A stretch of 61,332 bases of DNA from an uncultured Thermomicrobiales bacterium (GTDB lineage: Bacteria > Chloroflexota > Chloroflexia > Thermomicrobiales > UBA6265): assembly GCA_902806345.1 (NCBI GenBank), contig CADCWF010000251.1:1-61332 (forward strand). Reading direction: 5' to 3'. Below are positions 16,360 through 60,519 of this stretch, piece by piece. Positions within the stretch are counted from its first letter, which is position 1. Every line of letters begins with the position of its first letter. The translations under genes and the position numbers were made by a program. Below the pieces are notes generated by a model. It made no database searches. It was given only the letters and a program-made list of their open reading frames with translations, and had not been told where the DNA came from.

Positions 16360-16423
16360 ACCAGCACCACCCTGCCACCCCGGATCCGGGCCAATGGCAC
16401 CGGGTGGTGGAGGGGTAGCGTCC

Positions 16424-17623
16424 TTGGGTCCCAGCGGCGACGATACGATCTACCTGGACCACGCCGCGACTACGCCCCTCGACCCCGAGGTGCTAGCGGC
16501 GATGGTGCCCTACCTCACCAGGAGTTTCGGCAACCCGTCGAGCATCTATCGGCTCGGCCAGGAAGCGCGGGCAGCGGTCGATGACGCCCGTAGCACGGTC
16601 GCCCGCGTCCTCGGCTGCAGCCCCGCCGAGATCGTTTTCACGAGCGGCGCAACCGAGTCGGACAACCTGGCGGTGAAGGGGATCGCCTGGCGACGGCGGC
16701 TGGAACGGGAGCGCGGGCGGAACGCCGCGATGCCGCACGTCGTCACCTCCGCGATCGAGCACCACGCCGTGCTGCATGCGGTGACCTCCCTGGAGCACCA
16801 GGGCTTCCCCGTGACCTACGTCCGGCCCGACCCCGAGGGAATCGTGAGCCCCGAGCAGATCGAGGCGGTGATCCGGCCGGAGACGTGCCTTGTCTCCGTC
16901 ATGTACGCCAACAACGAATCGGGAGCGATCCAGCCGGTGGCGGAGATCGGGCGGATCGCCCGGGAGCGGGGAATCCCCTTCCACGTCGACGCCGTCCAGG
17001 GCGCCGGCTTGCTGCCGCTGGGCGTCGACGACCTCGGCTGCGACCTGCTCGCCCTCTCGGCCCACAAGTTCTACGGTCCGAAGGGGGTCGGCCTGCTCTA
17101 CGTCCGCCGCGGGACGCCGATCCGTTGGCAGCAGGACGGCGGCGGCCAGGAAGGCGGCCGCCGAGGCGGCACCGAGAACGTCGTCGGCATTGTCGGGCTG
17201 GCGGCCGCACTGGCCAAGGCGGAGGCCCAGCGGCCGGGCTACGTCGACCATTGCGCCGCCCTCCGCGACCGCCTGGAAGCGGGCATCAAGGCGACGATCC
17301 CCGACGCCGTCATCAACGGCCCGAGCGACCCAGCCCGCCGGCTGCCGAACAACCTCAACGTCGCGCTCCCCGGCATTCAGGGGGAGACGGTGTTGCTCAA
17401 CCTGGACATGCAGGGCGTGGCGGCGTCGGCCGGCTCCGCCTGCACCACCGGCAACAGCGAGCCGAGCCACGTCCTGCTGGCGATGGGCCTCGGCGAAGAG
17501 CGGTGCCGGGAGAGCCTCCGCTTCACCGTTGGCCGCTCCACCACCGCCGACCAGATCGACGAGACGATCGAGATCCTGGCCGAGACGGTCGCCCGGGTCC
17601 GGGGGTTGGCCGGGGTGGCTTAA
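16424..17623 (+). CDS. iscS: Cysteine desulfurase (IscS/NifS group I)
   Basis: YLDHAATTP, HVDAVQ, PLP-lysine SAHKFYGPKG, and catalytic SAGSACTTG. Start taken at TTG 16424 after GGAGG; the ORF track starts at 16394. Confidence 0.95.
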   Translation: MGPSGDDTIYLDHAATTPLDPEVLAAMVPYLTRSFGNPSSIYRLGQEARAAVDDARSTVARVLGCSPAEIVFTSGATESDNLAVKGIAWRRRLERERGRNAAMPHVVTSAIEHHAVLHAVTSLEHQGFPVTYVRPDPEGIVSPEQIEAVIRPETCLVSVMYANNESGAIQPVAEIGRIARERGIPFHVDAVQGAGLLPLGVDDLGCDLLALSAHKFYGPKGVGLLYVRRGTPIRWQQDGGGQEGGRRGGTENVVGIVGLAAALAKAEAQRPGYVDHCAALRDRLEAGIKATIPDAVINGPSDPARRLPNNLNVALPGIQGETVLLNLDMQGVAASAGSACTTGNSEPSHVLLAMGLGEERCRESLRFTVGRSTTADQIDETIEILAETVARVRGLAGVA

Positions 17624-53549: not shown

Positions 53550-54674
53550 ATGTCCGCCACGACCCAGTTGACGAAGGAGCGCGTGCTCGAATCACTCTCG
53601 GCCGTGATCGAGCCGGAAGTGCTCAAGCCGCTGACCGAACTGAAGATGATCCTCGCCGTCGAGATCGCCGAGGCTACGGTGAAGGTGACGGCCGAGCTGC
53701 TCTACCCGAACGCGCCCTACAAGGATCGGCTCGAGGAGGAGATCCGAGCGGCCGTCGCCGGGTTGCCCGATGTCGCCGAGGTCGAGGTGATTTGGCACAA
53801 CCGGGTCCGCGCCAGCGGCCGGGGCAAGGCCGACGCCGAGCCGATCAAGGGGGTCAAGAACACGATCGCCGTGGCCTCCGGCAAGGGCGGCGTCGGCAAG
53901 AGCACGGTGGCGGTCAACCTCGCCGTCGCGCTGGCCCGGAGCGGGGCCAGGGTCGGCCTGCTCGACACCGACGTCTACGGGCCGAGCATCCCGCTGATGA
54001 TGGGGGAGACGGCGAAGCCGGCGGTGACCCAGATGGCGACGCCGGCCGGCCCGAAGAACATGATCGTGCCGCTGGAAGCGCACGGCGTCAAGGTGATGAG
54101 CATCGGCTTCCTGCTCGACCCGAACAAGGCGCTGATCTGGCGGGGGCCGCTCGTCGCCCAGCTCATCAACCAGTTCCTCAACGACGTGCTCTGGGGCGAA
54201 CTCGACTACCTGGTGATGGACCTGCCGCCGGGGACCGGCGACGTCCAGTTGACCCTGACTCAGAAAATCCCGATCGCTGGCGGCGTCATCGTCACCACCC
54301 CCCAGGACGTGGCGCTGGCCGACGCCCTGAAGGGGCTGCGGATGTTCGAGGACGTCAAGACGCCGGTAATGGGCATCGTCGAGAACATGAGCGGCTTCGT
54401 CTGCCCCTGCTGTGGGGAGCGGACCGACATCTTCGGCGAGGGCGGCGGCAAGCGGCTGGCGGCGGCCCAGGGCGTCGAGCTGCTCGGCCAGGTGCCGATC
54501 GAGCCGGCGGTGCGGGCGGGCGGCGACAGTGGCGTGCCGGTCGTCGTCGGCCACCCGGAGTCGGAGACGGCCAAGGCGTTCTTCCTGCTCGCCGAACGCG
54601 TCGCCGCCAAGCTGGCGAAGGACGCCGTCGAGCGGCCCCGCAAGGCGACGATCAAGCTGATGCAAGCGCGGTAG
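53550..54674 (+). CDS. mrp: Mrp/ApbC (Nbp35-like) Fe-S carrier ATPase with N-terminal DUF59-like domain
   Basis: SGKGGVGKST, DTDVYGPS, WRGP, DLPPGTGD, and ENMSGFVCPCCG. Confidence 0.95.
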   Translation: MSATTQLTKERVLESLSAVIEPEVLKPLTELKMILAVEIAEATVKVTAELLYPNAPYKDRLEEEIRAAVAGLPDVAEVEVIWHNRVRASGRGKADAEPIKGVKNTIAVASGKGGVGKSTVAVNLAVALARSGARVGLLDTDVYGPSIPLMMGETAKPAVTQMATPAGPKNMIVPLEAHGVKVMSIGFLLDPNKALIWRGPLVAQLINQFLNDVLWGELDYLVMDLPPGTGDVQLTLTQKIPIAGGVIVTTPQDVALADALKGLRMFEDVKTPVMGIVENMSGFVCPCCGERTDIFGEGGGKRLAAAQGVELLGQVPIEPAVRAGGDSGVPVVVGHPESETAKAFFLLAERVAAKLAKDAVERPRKATIKLMQAR

Positions 54675-54992: not shown

Positions 54993-56267
54993 TCAATCGT
55001 CGACCGGTCCCGCCTCGTCCACCGGCGTCGCCAGGGCCGCCGCCTCGGCCTGGAGGCGGCCGGGGTTGTTCTTCTCGCCAGCGGTGAACGGGTTGGCCCA
55101 GGCGGGACCAGCGGCGCCGTGGAAGCGGTCGGGCCGGAACGGCTCGAGGTCGCAGCCGGGGTCGCGGCCGGCGAGGAGGTCGGCCACGACGAGGCCGACG
55201 GCGGCGCCCCACGAGAAACCGCCGCCGTTGAAACCGGCCGCCAGCGTCAGGCCCGGCGCGGGGGCGTAGCGGCCGATCAAGGGCAACCCGTCGGCGGTGA
55301 ACCCCATGATGCCCGACCAAGCCCGGACCACGTTGACACCGCCGCCGCGCAGCGCCGGGAAGAGCCGGCCCAGGCAGCGGGCGATGCCGGAGAGCACGGG
55401 CGCGGTCACCCGCTCCTCGTACGTGCCGAGTCCCTCGGCCTCGTCGAGCCGGCGGTAGCCGCCGCAGAGGATCTGGCCTCCCGTGGTCTGCCGGCCGTAC
55501 TCCTTGTCGAAGTTGGTGCCGAAGGGTAGGGGGAGGAACGGCGCCACCGGCTCCGTCACCAGGATCTGGCCGCGCGCCGGGACGATCGCTCCCGGCGGCA
55601 GCTCCGGCAGCAGCTCCGGCGCGTAGGCATTGGTCGCCAGCACCACGTCCCCGGCCGGGATCGCCTCGCCGCCGGCGACCACCCCGACGACCCGCTCGTC
55701 GTCTCGAAGGAGCCCGTCGACAGAGGTCCAGGTGCGGATGTCGGCGCCGTGGCGGCGGGCGGCATCGGCGAAGCCGTTGACGAGCGCGAAGGGCCAGAGG
55801 TGGCCGCGGCCGGGCGCGTAGGCGGCGCCGAGGATGTCGGGCGCGAGCGCCGGCATCAGCGTCCGCGTCTCCCGTGGGTCGAGCAGTTGGACCGGGATGC
55901 CGGCAGCGCGCTGTTCGGCGACCGACTCCGCCAGGTGGGCATGCTGCTCCGGTGTGGTGATGACGTCGAGGGAGCCGGGCAGCCGGAGCTGGAAATCACA
56001 CCCGAGCTCGAGCTCCAGTCCGCGGAGCAGATCCAGGTTGCGCGTTGTCAGGGCGTAGACGGCGCGACCGGCGGCCGACCGGGCATGCATCGAGGAGCCG
56101 GCGCCGGTCATCCCGCCGTTGCGGCCGGAGGCGCCGGAGCAGACGCCGCGCCGCTCCAACAGCAGCACCCGACGCCCCTCGGCGGCGAGGCGGTAGGCGA
56201 TCGAGCAGCCGATGACGCCGGCGCCGACGACGACGACATCCGGGGAAGGGGAGACGGGGGCTGCCAT
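54993..56267 (-). CDS. FAD-dependent oxidoreductase (DAO / glycine-sarcosine oxidase family)
   Basis: VVVVGAGVIG, ASGRNGG, VVLATNAY, PARGQILVTE, RAWSG, and GFNGGGF. Confidence 0.92.
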   Translation of the reverse strand: MAAPVSPSPDVVVVGAGVIGCSIAYRLAAEGRRVLLLERRGVCSGASGRNGGMTGAGSSMHARSAAGRAVYALTTRNLDLLRGLELELGCDFQLRLPGSLDVITTPEQHAHLAESVAEQRAAGIPVQLLDPRETRTLMPALAPDILGAAYAPGRGHLWPFALVNGFADAARRHGADIRTWTSVDGLLRDDERVVGVVAGGEAIPAGDVVLATNAYAPELLPELPPGAIVPARGQILVTEPVAPFLPLPFGTNFDKEYGRQTTGGQILCGGYRRLDEAEGLGTYEERVTAPVLSGIARCLGRLFPALRGGGVNVVRAWSGIMGFTADGLPLIGRYAPAPGLTLAAGFNGGGFSWGAAVGLVVADLLAGRDPGCDLEPFRPDRFHGAAGPAWANPFTAGEKNNPGRLQAEAAALATPVDEAGPVDD

Positions 56268-56416: not shown

Positions 56417-58666
56417 TTACGGCGCCGCCATCGCCATCACCGGTTCGGCTGGGGCTGGGTGGGGGAGGGAGACGACGTAGGCCGTCTCGATGCCGGAGAC
56501 GGCGCCGATCTCGGCGAGCGCCGGGGCCGGGATCTCGTCGTCGACGTTGAGGACCATGATCGAGGCGCCGCCGCGCAGCCGCTCCCGGCGGCCGACCTGC
56601 ATCCCGGCGATGTTGACGTCGTAGCGGCCGAGGATGGTGCCGATCTGGCCGATCATCCCTGGCTGATCGCGGTGGTGGGTGATCAGGACGTCGCCGGCGA
56701 GGGGGCTGTTCAAGCCAAAGCCGTCGACCTCGACGATGCCGGCTTCCCGCCGGTCCCAGCGGACGACGACGTGGTGGGCCGGCTCGGCCTCGCCACGGAG
56801 GGTAACCTCGAACGAGAACGCGGGCACGGTCTCCGGGTTGGGGTCGTCCTGGCTGACGCCGACGGCAATTTCCGCCTCCGCCGCCACCAGTCGGGCGTTG
56901 ACCGGGGTGACCCGGCGGTCCGTCCAGCGGCCGAGCGCCTCGGCCAAGGCGGCGCCGAGGACGTGCTCCACGATGTCGCTCTGGACCAGACCGTCGACGG
57001 TGACGCCAAAGCGCGAGGCGCGCTCGGGCGCGAGGACGGCCAGGAGGCGGCCGGCGGCGGCGGCGACGGACGTCAGCGCCTGGAGCTGGCGGGTCCGGAG
57101 CGACGACGCCGGCAGATTGACCGCGTTCGGCACCGCCTCACCCCGAAGTGCGGCCAGGGTGCTGGTGCTGATCACCTCGCCGACGGCGGCCAGGGCTTCG
57201 GCGCTTGAGCCCCCGGTGTGGGGGGTGACGACGACGTTCGGCAGCGCGAAGAGGGGGCTCCCGGTGCACGGCTCGTGGGGGAAGACGTCGACCCCGGCAC
57301 CGGCGACCCGGCCGGAACGGAGCGCCTCGGCCAGCGCCTCCTGGTCGACGACTTCGCCGCGGGCCGCGTTGATGACGATGGCGCCCGGCTTGAGCAGCGC
57401 GAGGGTCCGCTCGTCGAGCATGTGGGTGGTCTCGGCGGTGGCCGGCACGTGGAAGGTGACCACGTCGCTGTTCGCCAGCAGGGTCGGGTAGTCGACCGGC
57501 GCGGCGCCGATCTCGGTGAAGCGAGCGGCGGTGATGTAGGGGTCGTAGGCGATGGTCTTCATCTCGAAGGCGCGCAGCCGCTGGGCCACCCGGGAGCCGA
57601 CCCGGCCGAGGCCGACGACGCCGACGGTGCGGCCCCGGAGGTCGACCGGCGTCATCCGCTTGCGCTCCCAGCGGCCCGCCTTGGTCGAGGCATCGGCGAA
57701 TGGGATCTGGCGGGTCACGGCGAGGAGCAGGGCGATGGTGTGCTCGGCCGCGGAGACGGCGTTGGCGCCCGGCGCGTTGAGGACGAGGACGCCGGCCCGC
57801 GTCGCCGCGGCGAGGTCGATGTTGTCCACCCCGACGCCCGCCCGGGCGACGACCCGCAGCCGCGGAGCGGCGCGCAGCACCTCCTCGTCCACCTGCGTCT
57901 CGCTGCGGACCACCAGCGCGTCGACCTCCCCGATTGCGGCCAGGAGCGCGGCGCGGTCGGTGCCGTCGACGTCGACGACCCTCGCCTCGCGCTCGAAGCG
58001 GGTCCGGGCGATGGGGTGGACGGCATCGCTGATCACGATCCGCGGCCGGTCTGGAGCGTGGCCGTTCGGCGACGCGGCGGTGTCACCGGCCGACGGGGCG
58101 GCGAGACGGCGGCGCAGGAGCGGCACCACCCCCAGGAGGGTCGCGACCTGGACGATGGAGCCGTCGGCGGGTGGTGGCGCGTCCTCGCCGCTCTTGACGA
58201 GGAAGCAGGTGACCCCGGCCGCCGCGTAGTTGCGGGCGTGGCGGAGGCTGTCCTCGACCGCGTAGCCGATGCCGTGGCGGAGGGCGACGGCGGCCTTGAG
58301 GTCGGCGTAGAGCACCTCGCAGGGCGGAAAGCCGTGCCGCTCCAGCCAGCCGACGGTCATCCGCGCCGCATGCTCGGGGCGGGCGGTGACGATCTTGACG
58401 TTGTCGGGGCCGCAGAGGTCGATCATCGCCCGGAGGAAGGCGGGTCCGTCGGGATCCGGGGCCAGCTTCGCGGCGGGGCCGTCCGGGGCGTAGACCCAGT
58501 CGCGGACCTCGACCGGCACGTTCAGCCCCGCCGAATCGACGAACGCGCTCTCCGGCAGTTCGCGCTCGAAGCGGGCCGAGGCCGCCCGGGCGAGCGGCCG
58601 GGGGTGCTCCGTCAGCACCCCGTCGAGGTCGACCGCCAGCCGCACCGGATCCGTCCCCACACCCAT
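56417..58666 (-). CDS. serA: Fusion of an N-terminal HAD-superfamily domain with D-3-phosphoglycerate dehydrogenase (ASB + ACT domains)
   Basis: HAD motifs: DLDGVL (I), IVTAR (II), K (III), VEDS (IV). PGDH motifs: RAGVGVDNID, GVVGLGRVG, INAARG, DVFPHEP, TPHTGGS. ACT motif: HRDQPGMIGQIGTILGRYDVNIAGM. Confidence 0.92.
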   Translation of the reverse strand: MGVGTDPVRLAVDLDGVLTEHPRPLARAASARFERELPESAFVDSAGLNVPVEVRDWVYAPDGPAAKLAPDPDGPAFLRAMIDLCGPDNVKIVTARPEHAARMTVGWLERHGFPPCEVLYADLKAAVALRHGIGYAVEDSLRHARNYAAAGVTCFLVKSGEDAPPPADGSIVQVATLLGVVPLLRRRLAAPSAGDTAASPNGHAPDRPRIVISDAVHPIARTRFEREARVVDVDGTDRAALLAAIGEVDALVVRSETQVDEEVLRAAPRLRVVARAGVGVDNIDLAAATRAGVLVLNAPGANAVSAAEHTIALLLAVTRQIPFADASTKAGRWERKRMTPVDLRGRTVGVVGLGRVGSRVAQRLRAFEMKTIAYDPYITAARFTEIGAAPVDYPTLLANSDVVTFHVPATAETTHMLDERTLALLKPGAIVINAARGEVVDQEALAEALRSGRVAGAGVDVFPHEPCTGSPLFALPNVVVTPHTGGSSAEALAAVGEVISTSTLAALRGEAVPNAVNLPASSLRTRQLQALTSVAAAAGRLLAVLAPERASRFGVTVDGLVQSDIVEHVLGAALAEALGRWTDRRVTPVNARLVAAEAEIAVGVSQDDPNPETVPAFSFEVTLRGEAEPAHHVVVRWDRREAGIVEVDGFGLNSPLAGDVLITHHRDQPGMIGQIGTILGRYDVNIAGMQVGRRERLRGGASIMVLNVDDEIPAPALAEIGAVSGIETAYVVSLPHPAPAEPVMAMAAP

Positions 58667-58859
58667 GCCCCCCCGCTTGCTCGTCCGGATTCAACGCCCG
58701 CCCTGCGGCTCGATTCGGCGGGCCGAACGACCGCGCAATCGACTGGCGAGCGGCACGCCATGGAGCGGCCGACGCGGCGGCCGGGTCAACCCGCGGAGCG
58801 TAGCACCCAGCGGAGCGCCGGTTCAACGCGCGGCGACGCCGCGGGTGGTGGCCGGCGAC

Positions 58860-59507
58860 TCAGGCGCGGTGTCCCTCCGCCGCCTCTTTGGTGATCTTCA
58901 AGTGGACCCGGTCCGTCCCGAAATCGGCCACCTCGGCGACGGGGATGCGCAAATCATGGCGGAAGAGGAACCCGGCCTTGACGACCAAGGCGTCGACGGT
59001 CCCGAGCTCGCCGACAACCGCCTCGTCGAGGGTGCCGATCTTGTGGCCGTCGCTCGAGACCACGTCGCTGCCGTGGTGGAGGACCGCCTCCGAGAAGAGC
59101 AGGTTGGACTCGACCTGGACGGTCGGCGGATCGATCGGGGCGACGTCGAAGAAGTCGCCGCCGGGGTAGCCGGGACCGCCGGCTGACGCATCGGTGAGGA
59201 CCGGGCCGCCGACCCCGCCGGTCGGGATGATCGTCGGGAAATCGGGGACGCGCGGCTCGCTCGCGATCTCCCGGCTGTCGAGCATTGGCATCGCCTCGTA
59301 CGACTGCCGCGAGAGGTCGAGGGCAATCCCGTCTCCACCCGAGGTATTCACGGCCGAGACATCGACGAGCCGAGGCGGCTCACCTCGCCCGCGGCCGACG
59401 AGGACGCGGGTGACTTCGAAGGTGCCGCCGTTGACCACCACCCCGACGACGGAGCCGACCGCCTCACCGTCGCTCGCCCGAACCTCCTGTCCGAAGTCGA
59501 TCTTCAC
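58860..59507 (-). CDS. Tandem PRC-barrel domain protein
   Basis: SD GGGAGG then GTG. Two PRC-like units (GQEVRASDGEAVGSV; GSDVVSSDGHKIGTLDE...GFLFRHDLRIPV). Confidence 0.85.
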   Translation of the reverse strand: MKIDFGQEVRASDGEAVGSVVGVVVNGGTFEVTRVLVGRGRGEPPRLVDVSAVNTSGGDGIALDLSRQSYEAMPMLDSREIASEPRVPDFPTIIPTGGVGGPVLTDASAGGPGYPGGDFFDVAPIDPPTVQVESNLLFSEAVLHHGSDVVSSDGHKIGTLDEAVVGELGTVDALVVKAGFLFRHDLRIPVAEVADFGTDRVHLKITKEAAEGHRA

Positions 59508-59808
59508 GGCTTGCCTCCCTTTCAGATAACCCGTACGTTCGATGTGCTCAGCGGCGAAACGCCGCCGCCGTGGCGCTCGTTGAAGCAGCGGGCGACCCGT
59601 GAGGGGGACGCCGCCCTCGGCGTGGCGCGAGTGCGTCACTCTTTCGCACACCGCGGCGTGCTGCGCAAGACGGGCCGGGCCCGTCATCGGCGGCCATCGA
59701 GCCGTGGCGGTGGATGCATCTTGGGTCGGACCGGCGACGTAGCTTGAACGACGCCCGAAGGGAACCGCGACGCCGCGGGCGACACGACCGGACGGGGAGG
59801 GGACGCCA

Positions 59809-60519
59809 GTGGACGGCCAGGGATTCGATCGGCTTACGCGACGGCTGGCGGGAACCATCGGGCGGCGCGGCGCGCTGCGGTCGCTGGTCGGGGTGGCTGG
59901 GCTCGCGGTCGCCGGTTCGGCTGCGGTGCGAATCCGGGCCCAGGACGCGTGCCCCGAGGGATGCGGACGCAATCGGCGCTGCGTCGACGGCGCCTGCGTC
60001 CGCGCCTGCCAGGGCGACGGCGACTGCCGCGACGGCGACGACGCCTGCATCGGCGGCCGCTGCCGCGACGGCGTCTGCTCCCAGTTCGCGGCCCGCTGCG
60101 AGGCGGGCTACGTCTGCTGCGGCAACGGCGAGTGCTGCGGCCAGAGCTGCCGGCTCGACCTCGACTGCTTCGTCGCCGATCCGTGCGTCACCGGCCGCTG
60201 CGCCGACGCCACCTGCGAGTTCACCCGGCGCGATCCGTGCGTGGTCTGCGCGGCCGACGCCGACTGCGCCGAAACCGGCGGCACGTGCTGCGGCGGCGCC
60301 TGCATCTCGCCCTGCCCCGAGGGGTCGGTTCTGAGCAAGGGGTGCGAGTGTCGGGTGACCGCCCTCGACGGCGTCATCATCGCCGGCAACGCGGCCACCG
60401 ACGACGCCAGCGGGGCGGACGGCGAGCGCGACGTGCCGCCGACGCCTCAGCCGACGGCGCCGCCGGAACCGACCGTCGCGCCGACGGCCGTCCCCGTGTC
60501 GGGGACGCCGGCAGCGTAG
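59809..60519 (+). CDS. Secreted cysteine-rich protein with Tat-like leader
   Basis: Leader MDGQGFDRLTRRLAGTIGRRGALR...RAQD, 28 Cys in about 135 residues, and a Pro/Thr-rich tail. Confidence 0.82.
   Translation: MDGQGFDRLTRRLAGTIGRRGALRSLVGVAGLAVAGSAAVRIRAQDACPEGCGRNRRCVDGACVRACQGDGDCRDGDDACIGGRCRDGVCSQFAARCEAGYVCCGNGECCGQSCRLDLDCFVADPCVTGRCADATCEFTRRDPCVVCAADADCAETGGTCCGGACISPCPEGSVLSKGCECRVTALDGVIIAGNAATDDASGADGERDVPPTPQPTAPPEPTVAPTAVPVSGTPAA

Follow-up and report, generated by a model that had tools for sequence, protein, structure and literature searches.

Why should an enzyme that catalyses the first step of serine synthesis carry a phosphatase at its N-terminus? This question is raised by a gene on contig CADCWF010000251.1 (assembly GCA_902806345.1) of an uncultured, soil-type Thermomicrobiales bacterium (Chloroflexota) from the lineage UBA6265. 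A stretch of 61,332 nucleotides (positions 1 to 61,332 of the contig) was analysed here and is called the window in the following. The gene encodes a protein of 749 residues, in which a HAD phosphatase domain is followed by a linker and by a type I D-3-phosphoglycerate dehydrogenase (SerA), and we will refer to it as HAD-SerA. Our tentative answer, to which we would give somewhat less than an even chance, is that the HAD domain acts as a phosphoserine phosphatase not orthologous to SerB, by which the protein would become an analogue of the bifunctional HisB.

The fused gene and its distribution

A reading of the sequence alone had described a single uninterrupted frame of 749 residues with four HAD motifs, a linker, and a full type I SerA, and all of these features could be confirmed. 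The GC contents at the first, second, and third codon positions (0.77/0.51/0.94) are those of typical coding sequence, and the third-position values are alike in both halves of the gene, with 0.94 for residues 1-190 (HAD) and 0.95 for residues 209-749 (SerA). Because the frame opens only 8 in-frame sense codons upstream of the ATG, giving an open frame of 757 residues, the N-terminal HAD domain is the true N-terminus of the protein and not an artefact of the chosen start codon. Across the linker, the predicted local distance difference test (pLDDT) score of the AlphaFold model drops to 66 (residues 191-200).

Residues 209-734 match the TIGR01327 model over its full length (510 bits at a cut-off of 454, model positions 1-525 of 525), and the Pfam domains 2-Hacid_dh (PF00389), 2-Hacid_dh_C (PF02826), and ACT (PF01842) are all found in this half. 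The sequence also shows the GxGxxG motif (GLGRVG) and, of the catalytic residues, Arg in AARGE, Glu in FPHEP, and His in TPHTGG. Judged by these matches, the SerA half is complete and an ordinary type I enzyme including the ASB and ACT domains. Like SerA1 of Mycobacterium tuberculosis (type I, TIGR01327), it is a full family member with catalytic domains, ASB, and ACT. However, known type I SerA proteins start at the substrate-binding domain, whereas HAD-SerA has about 208 additional residues in front of it.

If the fusion were a read-through artefact, homologues would always be two separate genes, but they are almost always one. A search with residues 1-200 returned 348 proteins, and nearly all of the best 120, which we examined, have 745-780 residues and contain SerA domains, with few shorter or longer ones. 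Those among them that have a name are called "phosphoglycerate dehydrogenase" and come from metagenome-assembled genomes (MAGs) of Thermomicrobiales, Chloroflexia, or Chloroflexota. In a sample of the class, consisting of 201 evenly chosen genomes, 64 belong to the order of the window, the Thermomicrobiales. A strong match to the HAD domain is present in 60 of these 64, mostly within open frames of about 720-910 residues. Matches outside the order are all weak (E values of 1e-6 to 1e-24) and lie in short open reading frames (ORFs) of about 150-260 residues. A scan of species-representative genomes with a narrower alignment (A2) gave 130 loci, of which 80 were kept. Their titles read Thermomicrobiales, Sphaerobacterales, Chloroflexia, Chloroflexota, or uncultured bacterium, and one bin carries the label Actinomycetes. 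Where one of the 80 loci is complete, it nearly always encodes the fused HAD-SerA. In general, almost all genomes sampled from three Thermomicrobiales families (f1-f3) have a fused homologue of about 750 residues. Given single ORFs across hundreds of independent assemblies, an origin of the fusion by read-through or mis-assembly can be ruled out.

Five loci (G174, G178, L050, L089, and L108) that might have been taken for split genes are frameshifts, mostly in long-read MAGs, and were rejected as such. On a metagenome contig of 1.3 kb (L128:363-1286), a TAG codon closes the HAD gene, and the ATG of serA comes directly after it without a change of frame (caaaccTAGATGaca). Either the gene has been split naturally into two that abut, or a nonsense change has occurred, and it is one case only.

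For the analysis of conservation we used 115 full-length fused homologues. The mean pairwise identity is 73% for the HAD domain, 77% for the dehydrogenase core, 64% for the ASB domain, and 79% for the ACT domain, and falls to 25% in the linker region (161-208). The divergences of the HAD and dehydrogenase parts correlate across the homologues (Spearman 0.82). By these values, both halves have co-evolved as a single gene and under strong purifying selection of similar degree, from a time that precedes the split of the three families.

Identity of the HAD domain

What kind of HAD protein has been joined to SerA? A phmmer search of the Protein Data Bank (PDB) with the HAD domain alone gave zero matches, and a profile was required, for which we aligned fused and stand-alone relatives of the domain in 45 rows (A1). 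This profile finds the deoxyribonucleotidase-like protein 3bwv with an E value of 1.9e-14 and the human and mouse cdN/mdN at about 1e-10, and the Pfam family NT5C (PF06941) matches 34 of the 45 aligned members (best E value 5.9e-19). The window protein itself stays under the NT5C gathering threshold of 24.8 bits, reaching 14.4 bits as a whole protein and 18.3 bits with the domain alone. D13, D15, R96, W107, and D139 are invariant across the 45 rows, and T94 is nearly so. An AlphaFold model of the domain from the single sequence reached a pLDDT of only 46 and was unusable; the alignment-based model used instead has a pLDDT of 93, a predicted template-modelling score of 0.89, and a HAD fold with its Rossmannoid core and a cap. 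In a Foldseek search with this model, the best PDB matches are again 3bwv and cdN (2i7d), with a template-modelling (TM) score of about 0.6; further HAD enzymes with a cap rank behind them. There are 146 PDB structure matches at E<=0.001, and among the 50 listed all are HAD-fold proteins. The sequence family is small, since phmmer over 1.84 billion representative proteins gave 88 matches at E<=0.001. They comprise fragments and fusions at high identity, and stand-alone proteins of about 165-220 residues at 27-35% identity.

No SerB model is present among the best 25 of the 30 NCBIfam matches of the window protein. The characterised phosphoserine phosphatases for a comparison by BLAST were taken from the supplement of bioRxiv 10.1101/2023.03.10.532031. 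Of type 1 SerB, the N-terminal domain matches MJ1594 by chance (E value 58) and E. coli SerB not at all. With the type 2 and 3 enzymes Caur_0633, HTH_0103, TT_C1695, K649_13560, and BSU28940 it also gave chance matches (E>4). By its profile matches and its modelled fold, the HAD domain belongs to the 5'(3')-deoxyribonucleotidase (NT5C) branch of the HAD superfamily, within which it is divergent, and not to the HAD-IB domains of the SerB type. The earlier impression that it looks like a 5'(3')-nucleotidase has thus held, based on the 3bwv and cdN profile matches and on NT5C being found in 34 of 45 relatives.

In HAD motif I, the first Asp is the nucleophile and the Asp two positions further (Asp+2) the acid/base, the latter being typical of phosphatases. 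D13, D15, T94, R96, K124, E138, and D139 are invariant in all 115 fused homologues. From these intact motifs the domain is predicted to be a catalytically competent phosphatase with an Asp nucleophile. It could also have been retained as a non-catalytic ligand sensor or an oligomerisation module, given that its partner SerA is an allosteric enzyme and that N-terminal additions can alter the behaviour of tetramers. However, pseudo-enzymes normally lose their catalytic residues, and here all of them including the Asp+2 have been kept, so that we regard such a role as highly improbable.

The domain shares the fold, the cap type, and the four motifs with cdN/mdN and 3bwv (NT5C, PF06941), which are its best matches in both sequence and structure. 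It differs from cdN and 3bwv in remaining below the Pfam cut-off, in a TM score of only about 0.6, in being fused to SerA, and in the residues around the presumed nucleoside pocket. Phe18 and the Gly-Phe-Phe segment of cdN, whose aromatics line this pocket and sandwich the nucleobase, correspond in the profile alignment to His21 and Gly63-Pro64-Ala65 of the HAD domain, and each of these four residues is found in 99-100% of the fused homologues. The replacement of the aromatic positions argues against a nucleotide as substrate. This bears on the explanation that the domain is a nucleotidase, or a housekeeping or repair phosphatase unrelated to serine, whose fusion to SerA has been kept for expression or stability, with a type 3-like HAD-IA enzyme cleaving phosphoserine. 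Its nearest solved relatives are indeed deoxyribonucleotidases, and its stand-alone relatives (27-35% identity) are found in unrelated gene contexts. However, an accidental passenger would not be expected to be as tightly conserved as SerA itself over three families. We consider a function unrelated to serine unlikely, although it has to be taken seriously for a further reason that is found in the gene content of these genomes and is discussed below.

Phosphoserine and other candidate substrates

The bifunctional HisB of E. coli is a histidinol-phosphate phosphatase and imidazoleglycerol-phosphate dehydratase with proven activity. HAD-SerA resembles it in that an N-terminal HAD phosphatase is fused to an enzyme making a keto-phosphate, and in that the intervening aminotransferase is encoded separately. 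HisB differs in the HAD subfamily (IIIA), the partner enzyme, and the pathway, and the activity of HAD-SerA is predicted whereas that of HisB is proven. Taken as a Rosetta-stone fusion with SerA, and with HisB as precedent, the architecture favours a role of the HAD domain in the serine pathway. In such a scheme, the SerA half (the C-terminal 540 residues) would convert 3-phosphoglycerate to 3-phosphohydroxypyruvate, a separately encoded AGXT-type class V aminotransferase would form O-phospho-L-serine from it in step 2, and the N-terminal HAD domain of 190 residues would hydrolyse O-phospho-L-serine as the final step. One protein would then perform steps 1 and 3. Hydrolysis would proceed through an aspartyl-phosphate with D13 as nucleophile and D15 as acid/base, and serine bound to the ACT domain would throttle the protein. 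The HAD domain would have been derived from the NT5C branch and subsequently re-specialised. Here, we infer both the substrate of the HAD domain and the regulation by serine; feedback regulation is probable. The support for a phosphoserine phosphatase is indirect; besides the fusion itself, it consists of the missing SerB and of the variants described next.

In a conserved clade of proteins of about 380-420 residues, the same HAD domain is fused immediately to the SerA domains ASB and ACT, and the dehydrogenase core is absent. Members are L127:8001-9149 (P0134), L110:1670-2941 (P0129), and G245:C5:4716-5945, and they have the cap signature GVLTEHPR...PE.AF.D.AGL...VR.WVY...GPA in common. The clade comprises about 24 clusters with 74-100% identity on contigs of up to 1.54 Mb, and a more distant member is 46% identical. 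Genome G245 encodes a separate SerA-like dehydrogenase of 328 residues (G245:C44:4894-5841) in addition to this form. A phosphatase that is kept on ASB and ACT without the dehydrogenase core appears tied to the module sensing serine and the substrate, which would make little sense for a nucleotidase and is a further point against a function unrelated to serine. The retention on a serine-sensing module would fit a phosphatase of the serine pathway, comparable to the ACT-bearing SerB2. SerB2 of M. tuberculosis is an ACT-ACT-HAD-IB phosphoserine phosphatase, in which the HAD domain is likewise joined to serine-binding ACT domains (PMC10564941). The HAD-ASB-ACT variants have the same kind of layout, but SerB2 belongs to the HAD-IB subfamily, has another domain order, and does not include a dehydrogenase.

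The genome of the window is a MAG of 5.08 Mb and 90% completeness, and its one type I SerA is the HAD-SerA gene. No SerB above the TIGR00338 cut-off was found in it or in any sampled Thermomicrobiales genome, so that the sequence-only reading was correct in expecting no recognisable serB. SerB2-like proteins of about 400-460 residues are encoded in families f6 and f11, which belong to the same class but not to the order.

Several observations weigh against a phosphoserine phosphatase. A fusion by itself does not fix the substrate. By BLAST, the HAD domain does not resemble known phosphoserine phosphatases of type 1, 2, or 3 in its sequence. No conserved operon partners were found in the 80 related loci; neither serC nor another serine gene is a constant neighbour, and there is no conserved linkage to glyA or a DAO gene. 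Most importantly, other enzymes might perform the reaction. Type 3 phosphoserine phosphatases (Thermus TT_C1695, Bacillus subtilis YsaA/BSU28940) are HAD enzymes that replace SerB (bioRxiv 10.1101/2023.03.10.532031). The genome of the window encodes a HAD-IA protein (C227:4801-5550, + strand) that is 37% identical to TT_C1695 over 167 residues and shares with it the motif pattern and the NCBIfam score profile. Full-length homologues of C227 are present in most f1-f3 genomes, and genera g3, g7, and g9 carry a closer full-length homologue of TT_C1695 (37-41% identity). The phosphoserine phosphatase step may therefore be covered already by these type 3-like HAD-IA proteins. In addition, a histidine-phosphatase of the same genome (C273:150-752, - strand) is 31% identical to the type 2 enzyme PspA. 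It scores higher with CobC (alpha-ribazole phosphatase, 130 bits) than with PspA (72 bits), which is reversed in the validated Chloroflexus enzyme.

Among the genera checked, only g6 has neither a C227-like nor a TT_C1695-like homologue. As a side observation, the two forms look mutually exclusive among genera.

With a type 3-like HAD-IA protein present, it does not follow from a missing SerB that the fused domain is the SerB. The argument that these genomes have no other phosphoserine phosphatase failed, as such proteins are found nearly everywhere, including g3, g7, and g9. Of the earlier reasoning from a missing SerB, the absence itself thus stands, but not the gap as an argument. The type 3 enzymes differ from the fused domain in having no BLAST similarity to it, and the C227 homologue within the same genome is the main rival for the activity. 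Its presence in almost all of these genomes is also the further reason mentioned above for taking a phosphatase unrelated to serine seriously. The fused HAD domain is one of two serious candidates for the phosphoserine phosphatase.

The pathway genes might also point to a different substrate. Within the order, canonical SerC (TIGR01364) was found in family f4 only, and in the order-level genome sample no canonical SerC (TIGR01364, TIGR01366) was found in the fusion-bearing families f1-f3. The fusion, in turn, was not found in the single f4 genome sampled for the HAD domain. The joint absence of SerC and SerB in exactly those families that carry the fusion fits, and does not demonstrate, a route in which the HAD domain would cleave the product of SerA itself. 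3-Phosphohydroxypyruvate would be turned into hydroxypyruvate, from which an AGXT-type (serine:pyruvate/serine:glyoxylate-like) aminotransferase would then make serine. The fused domains would catalyse consecutive steps, and hydrolysis would pull the unfavourable equilibrium of the dehydrogenase. The best candidates for the step 2 aminotransferase in the genome of the window are AGXT-family class V enzymes (C332 and C12), and the HAD domain travels with the ASB domain, which binds 3-phosphohydroxypyruvate in the phosphoglycerate dehydrogenase of M. tuberculosis. Nevertheless, 3-phosphohydroxypyruvate seems an improbable substrate. We know of no serine pathway in which dephosphorylation precedes transamination, and in HisB the phosphatase is fused to the enzyme of a non-adjacent step. 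The absence of canonical SerC can also be explained otherwise, because in cyanobacteria and many Firmicutes it is accepted that AGXT-type enzymes act as phosphoserine aminotransferases (PMC9026213). A re-ordered serine route in three Thermomicrobiales families, running without phosphoserine, canonical SerC, and canonical SerB, in which the fusion would be a two-step channel making the SerA reaction irreversible, is quite improbable.

Returning to phosphoserine as the substrate that we tentatively favour, the sequence-only reading had suggested a non-orthologous phosphoserine phosphatase or a repair activity fused to SerA. Its architecture and the NT5C-like type of the domain were corroborated, whereas its substrate is still something that we infer. 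Reconstructions of amino-acid pathways lack few steps as often as that of phosphoserine phosphatase, an enzyme that has been replaced independently several times. Non-orthologous phosphoserine phosphatases are many, and SerB is a common gap (PMC13759103, PMC9026213, bioRxiv 10.1101/2023.03.10.532031), with 8% of prototrophs lacking it even by GapMind 2026 (PMC13759103). HAD-SerA is a candidate for a further, evolutionarily independent one. A description of the HAD-SerA architecture was not found in our full-text literature searches, and recent gap-filling work lists DUF1015, IMPase-like proteins, and types 1-3, and not an NT5C-SerA fusion (PMC13759103; bioRxiv 10.1101/2023.03.10.532031; PMC9026213). 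The database names of the fused proteins reflect the SerA part only, and the N-terminal domain is not annotated. If phosphoserine is the substrate, a HisB-like design would exist in a second amino-acid pathway, with a HAD phosphatase recruited by fusion. If it is 3-phosphohydroxypyruvate, serine synthesis would have a new order of steps. The domain of 190 residues merits a family model, lest the Thermomicrobiales (relatives of Thermomicrobium, Sphaerobacter, and Nitrolancea) be scored as serine auxotrophs or keep an unexplained gap.

Feature coordinates and neighbouring genes

The features of the HAD-SerA gene and its surroundings are listed in Table 1. No Rfam family, riboswitch, promoter, or convincing terminator was recognised around the gene.

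Table 1. Positions of the HAD-SerA gene, its domains and motifs, and the adjacent features in the window.
Feature	Position	Strand	Basis
ORF of 749 residues: HAD phosphatase domain, linker, type I SerA	56417..58666	-	ORF list, coding-type codon-position GC
N-terminal HAD phosphatase domain, NT5C-like, helical cap (residues 8-190)	58097..58645	-	PDB profile search, Pfam, AlphaFold2, Foldseek
HAD motif I, D13-L-D15-G-V-L-T19	58610..58630	-	invariant Asp pair in homologues
HAD motif II, I92-V-T94-A-R96	58379..58393	-	conservation in homologues
HAD motif III, Lys124	58295..58297	-	invariant among fused homologues
HAD motif IV, Glu138-Asp139	58250..58255	-	invariant among fused homologues
Inter-domain linker, ~18 residues (about 191-208), low-complexity Ala/Pro/Ser/Gly	58043..58096	-	identity drop, pLDDT drop
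Type I D-3-phosphoglycerate dehydrogenase (residues 209-734)	56465..58042	-	TIGR01327 full-model match
NAD-binding domain of the dehydrogenase (residues 311-485)	57212..57736	-	PF02826, E 9.2e-62
Intervening (ASB) domain (residues about 532-608)	56843..57073	-	weak PF19304 match, E 0.04; lies within the TIGR01327 match, which spans the whole model
C-terminal ACT domain (residues 661-723), presumed L-serine feedback site	56498..56686	-	PF01842, E 7.7e-11, 42 bits (cut-off 27)
Upstream intergenic region, G-rich stretch just before the ATG	58667..58859	-	no riboswitch or promoter recognised
DAO-family FAD oxidoreductase, downstream	54993-56267	-	PF01266, E 6.6e-72
PRC-barrel gene, upstream	58860-60050	-	C-terminal PF05239, E 4e-10

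The downstream oxidase gene had been thought to indicate a serine/glycine theme. It belongs to the DAO family but does not reach the cut-off of ThiO, SoxB, or D-amino-acid dehydrogenase. Because just 2 of the 80 related loci have a homologue of it close to the fusion, this neighbour is uninformative on function and the suggested theme was not borne out. The PRC-barrel gene neighbours the fusion in 11 of the 80 loci. Its true start is probably later than listed, since the ORF as listed opens with ~170 residues of low complexity.

Other genes of the window are mentioned here as minor observations. A Cys-rich protein of 236 residues (59809-60519, + strand) has a twin-arginine-like signal (RRGALRSLVGVAGLAVAGSAAV), a tail rich in Pro and Thr, and no match in Pfam, and relatives of it are located near the fusion gene in 13 of the 80 related loci. 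Further away, an Mrp/NUBPL-type Fe-S cluster carrier ATPase (53550-54674, + strand; PF10609, E 6e-101) and a NifS/IscS-like class V aminotransferase (16394-17623, + strand; PF00266, 258 bits) are encoded, both of which are ordinary Fe-S assembly genes.

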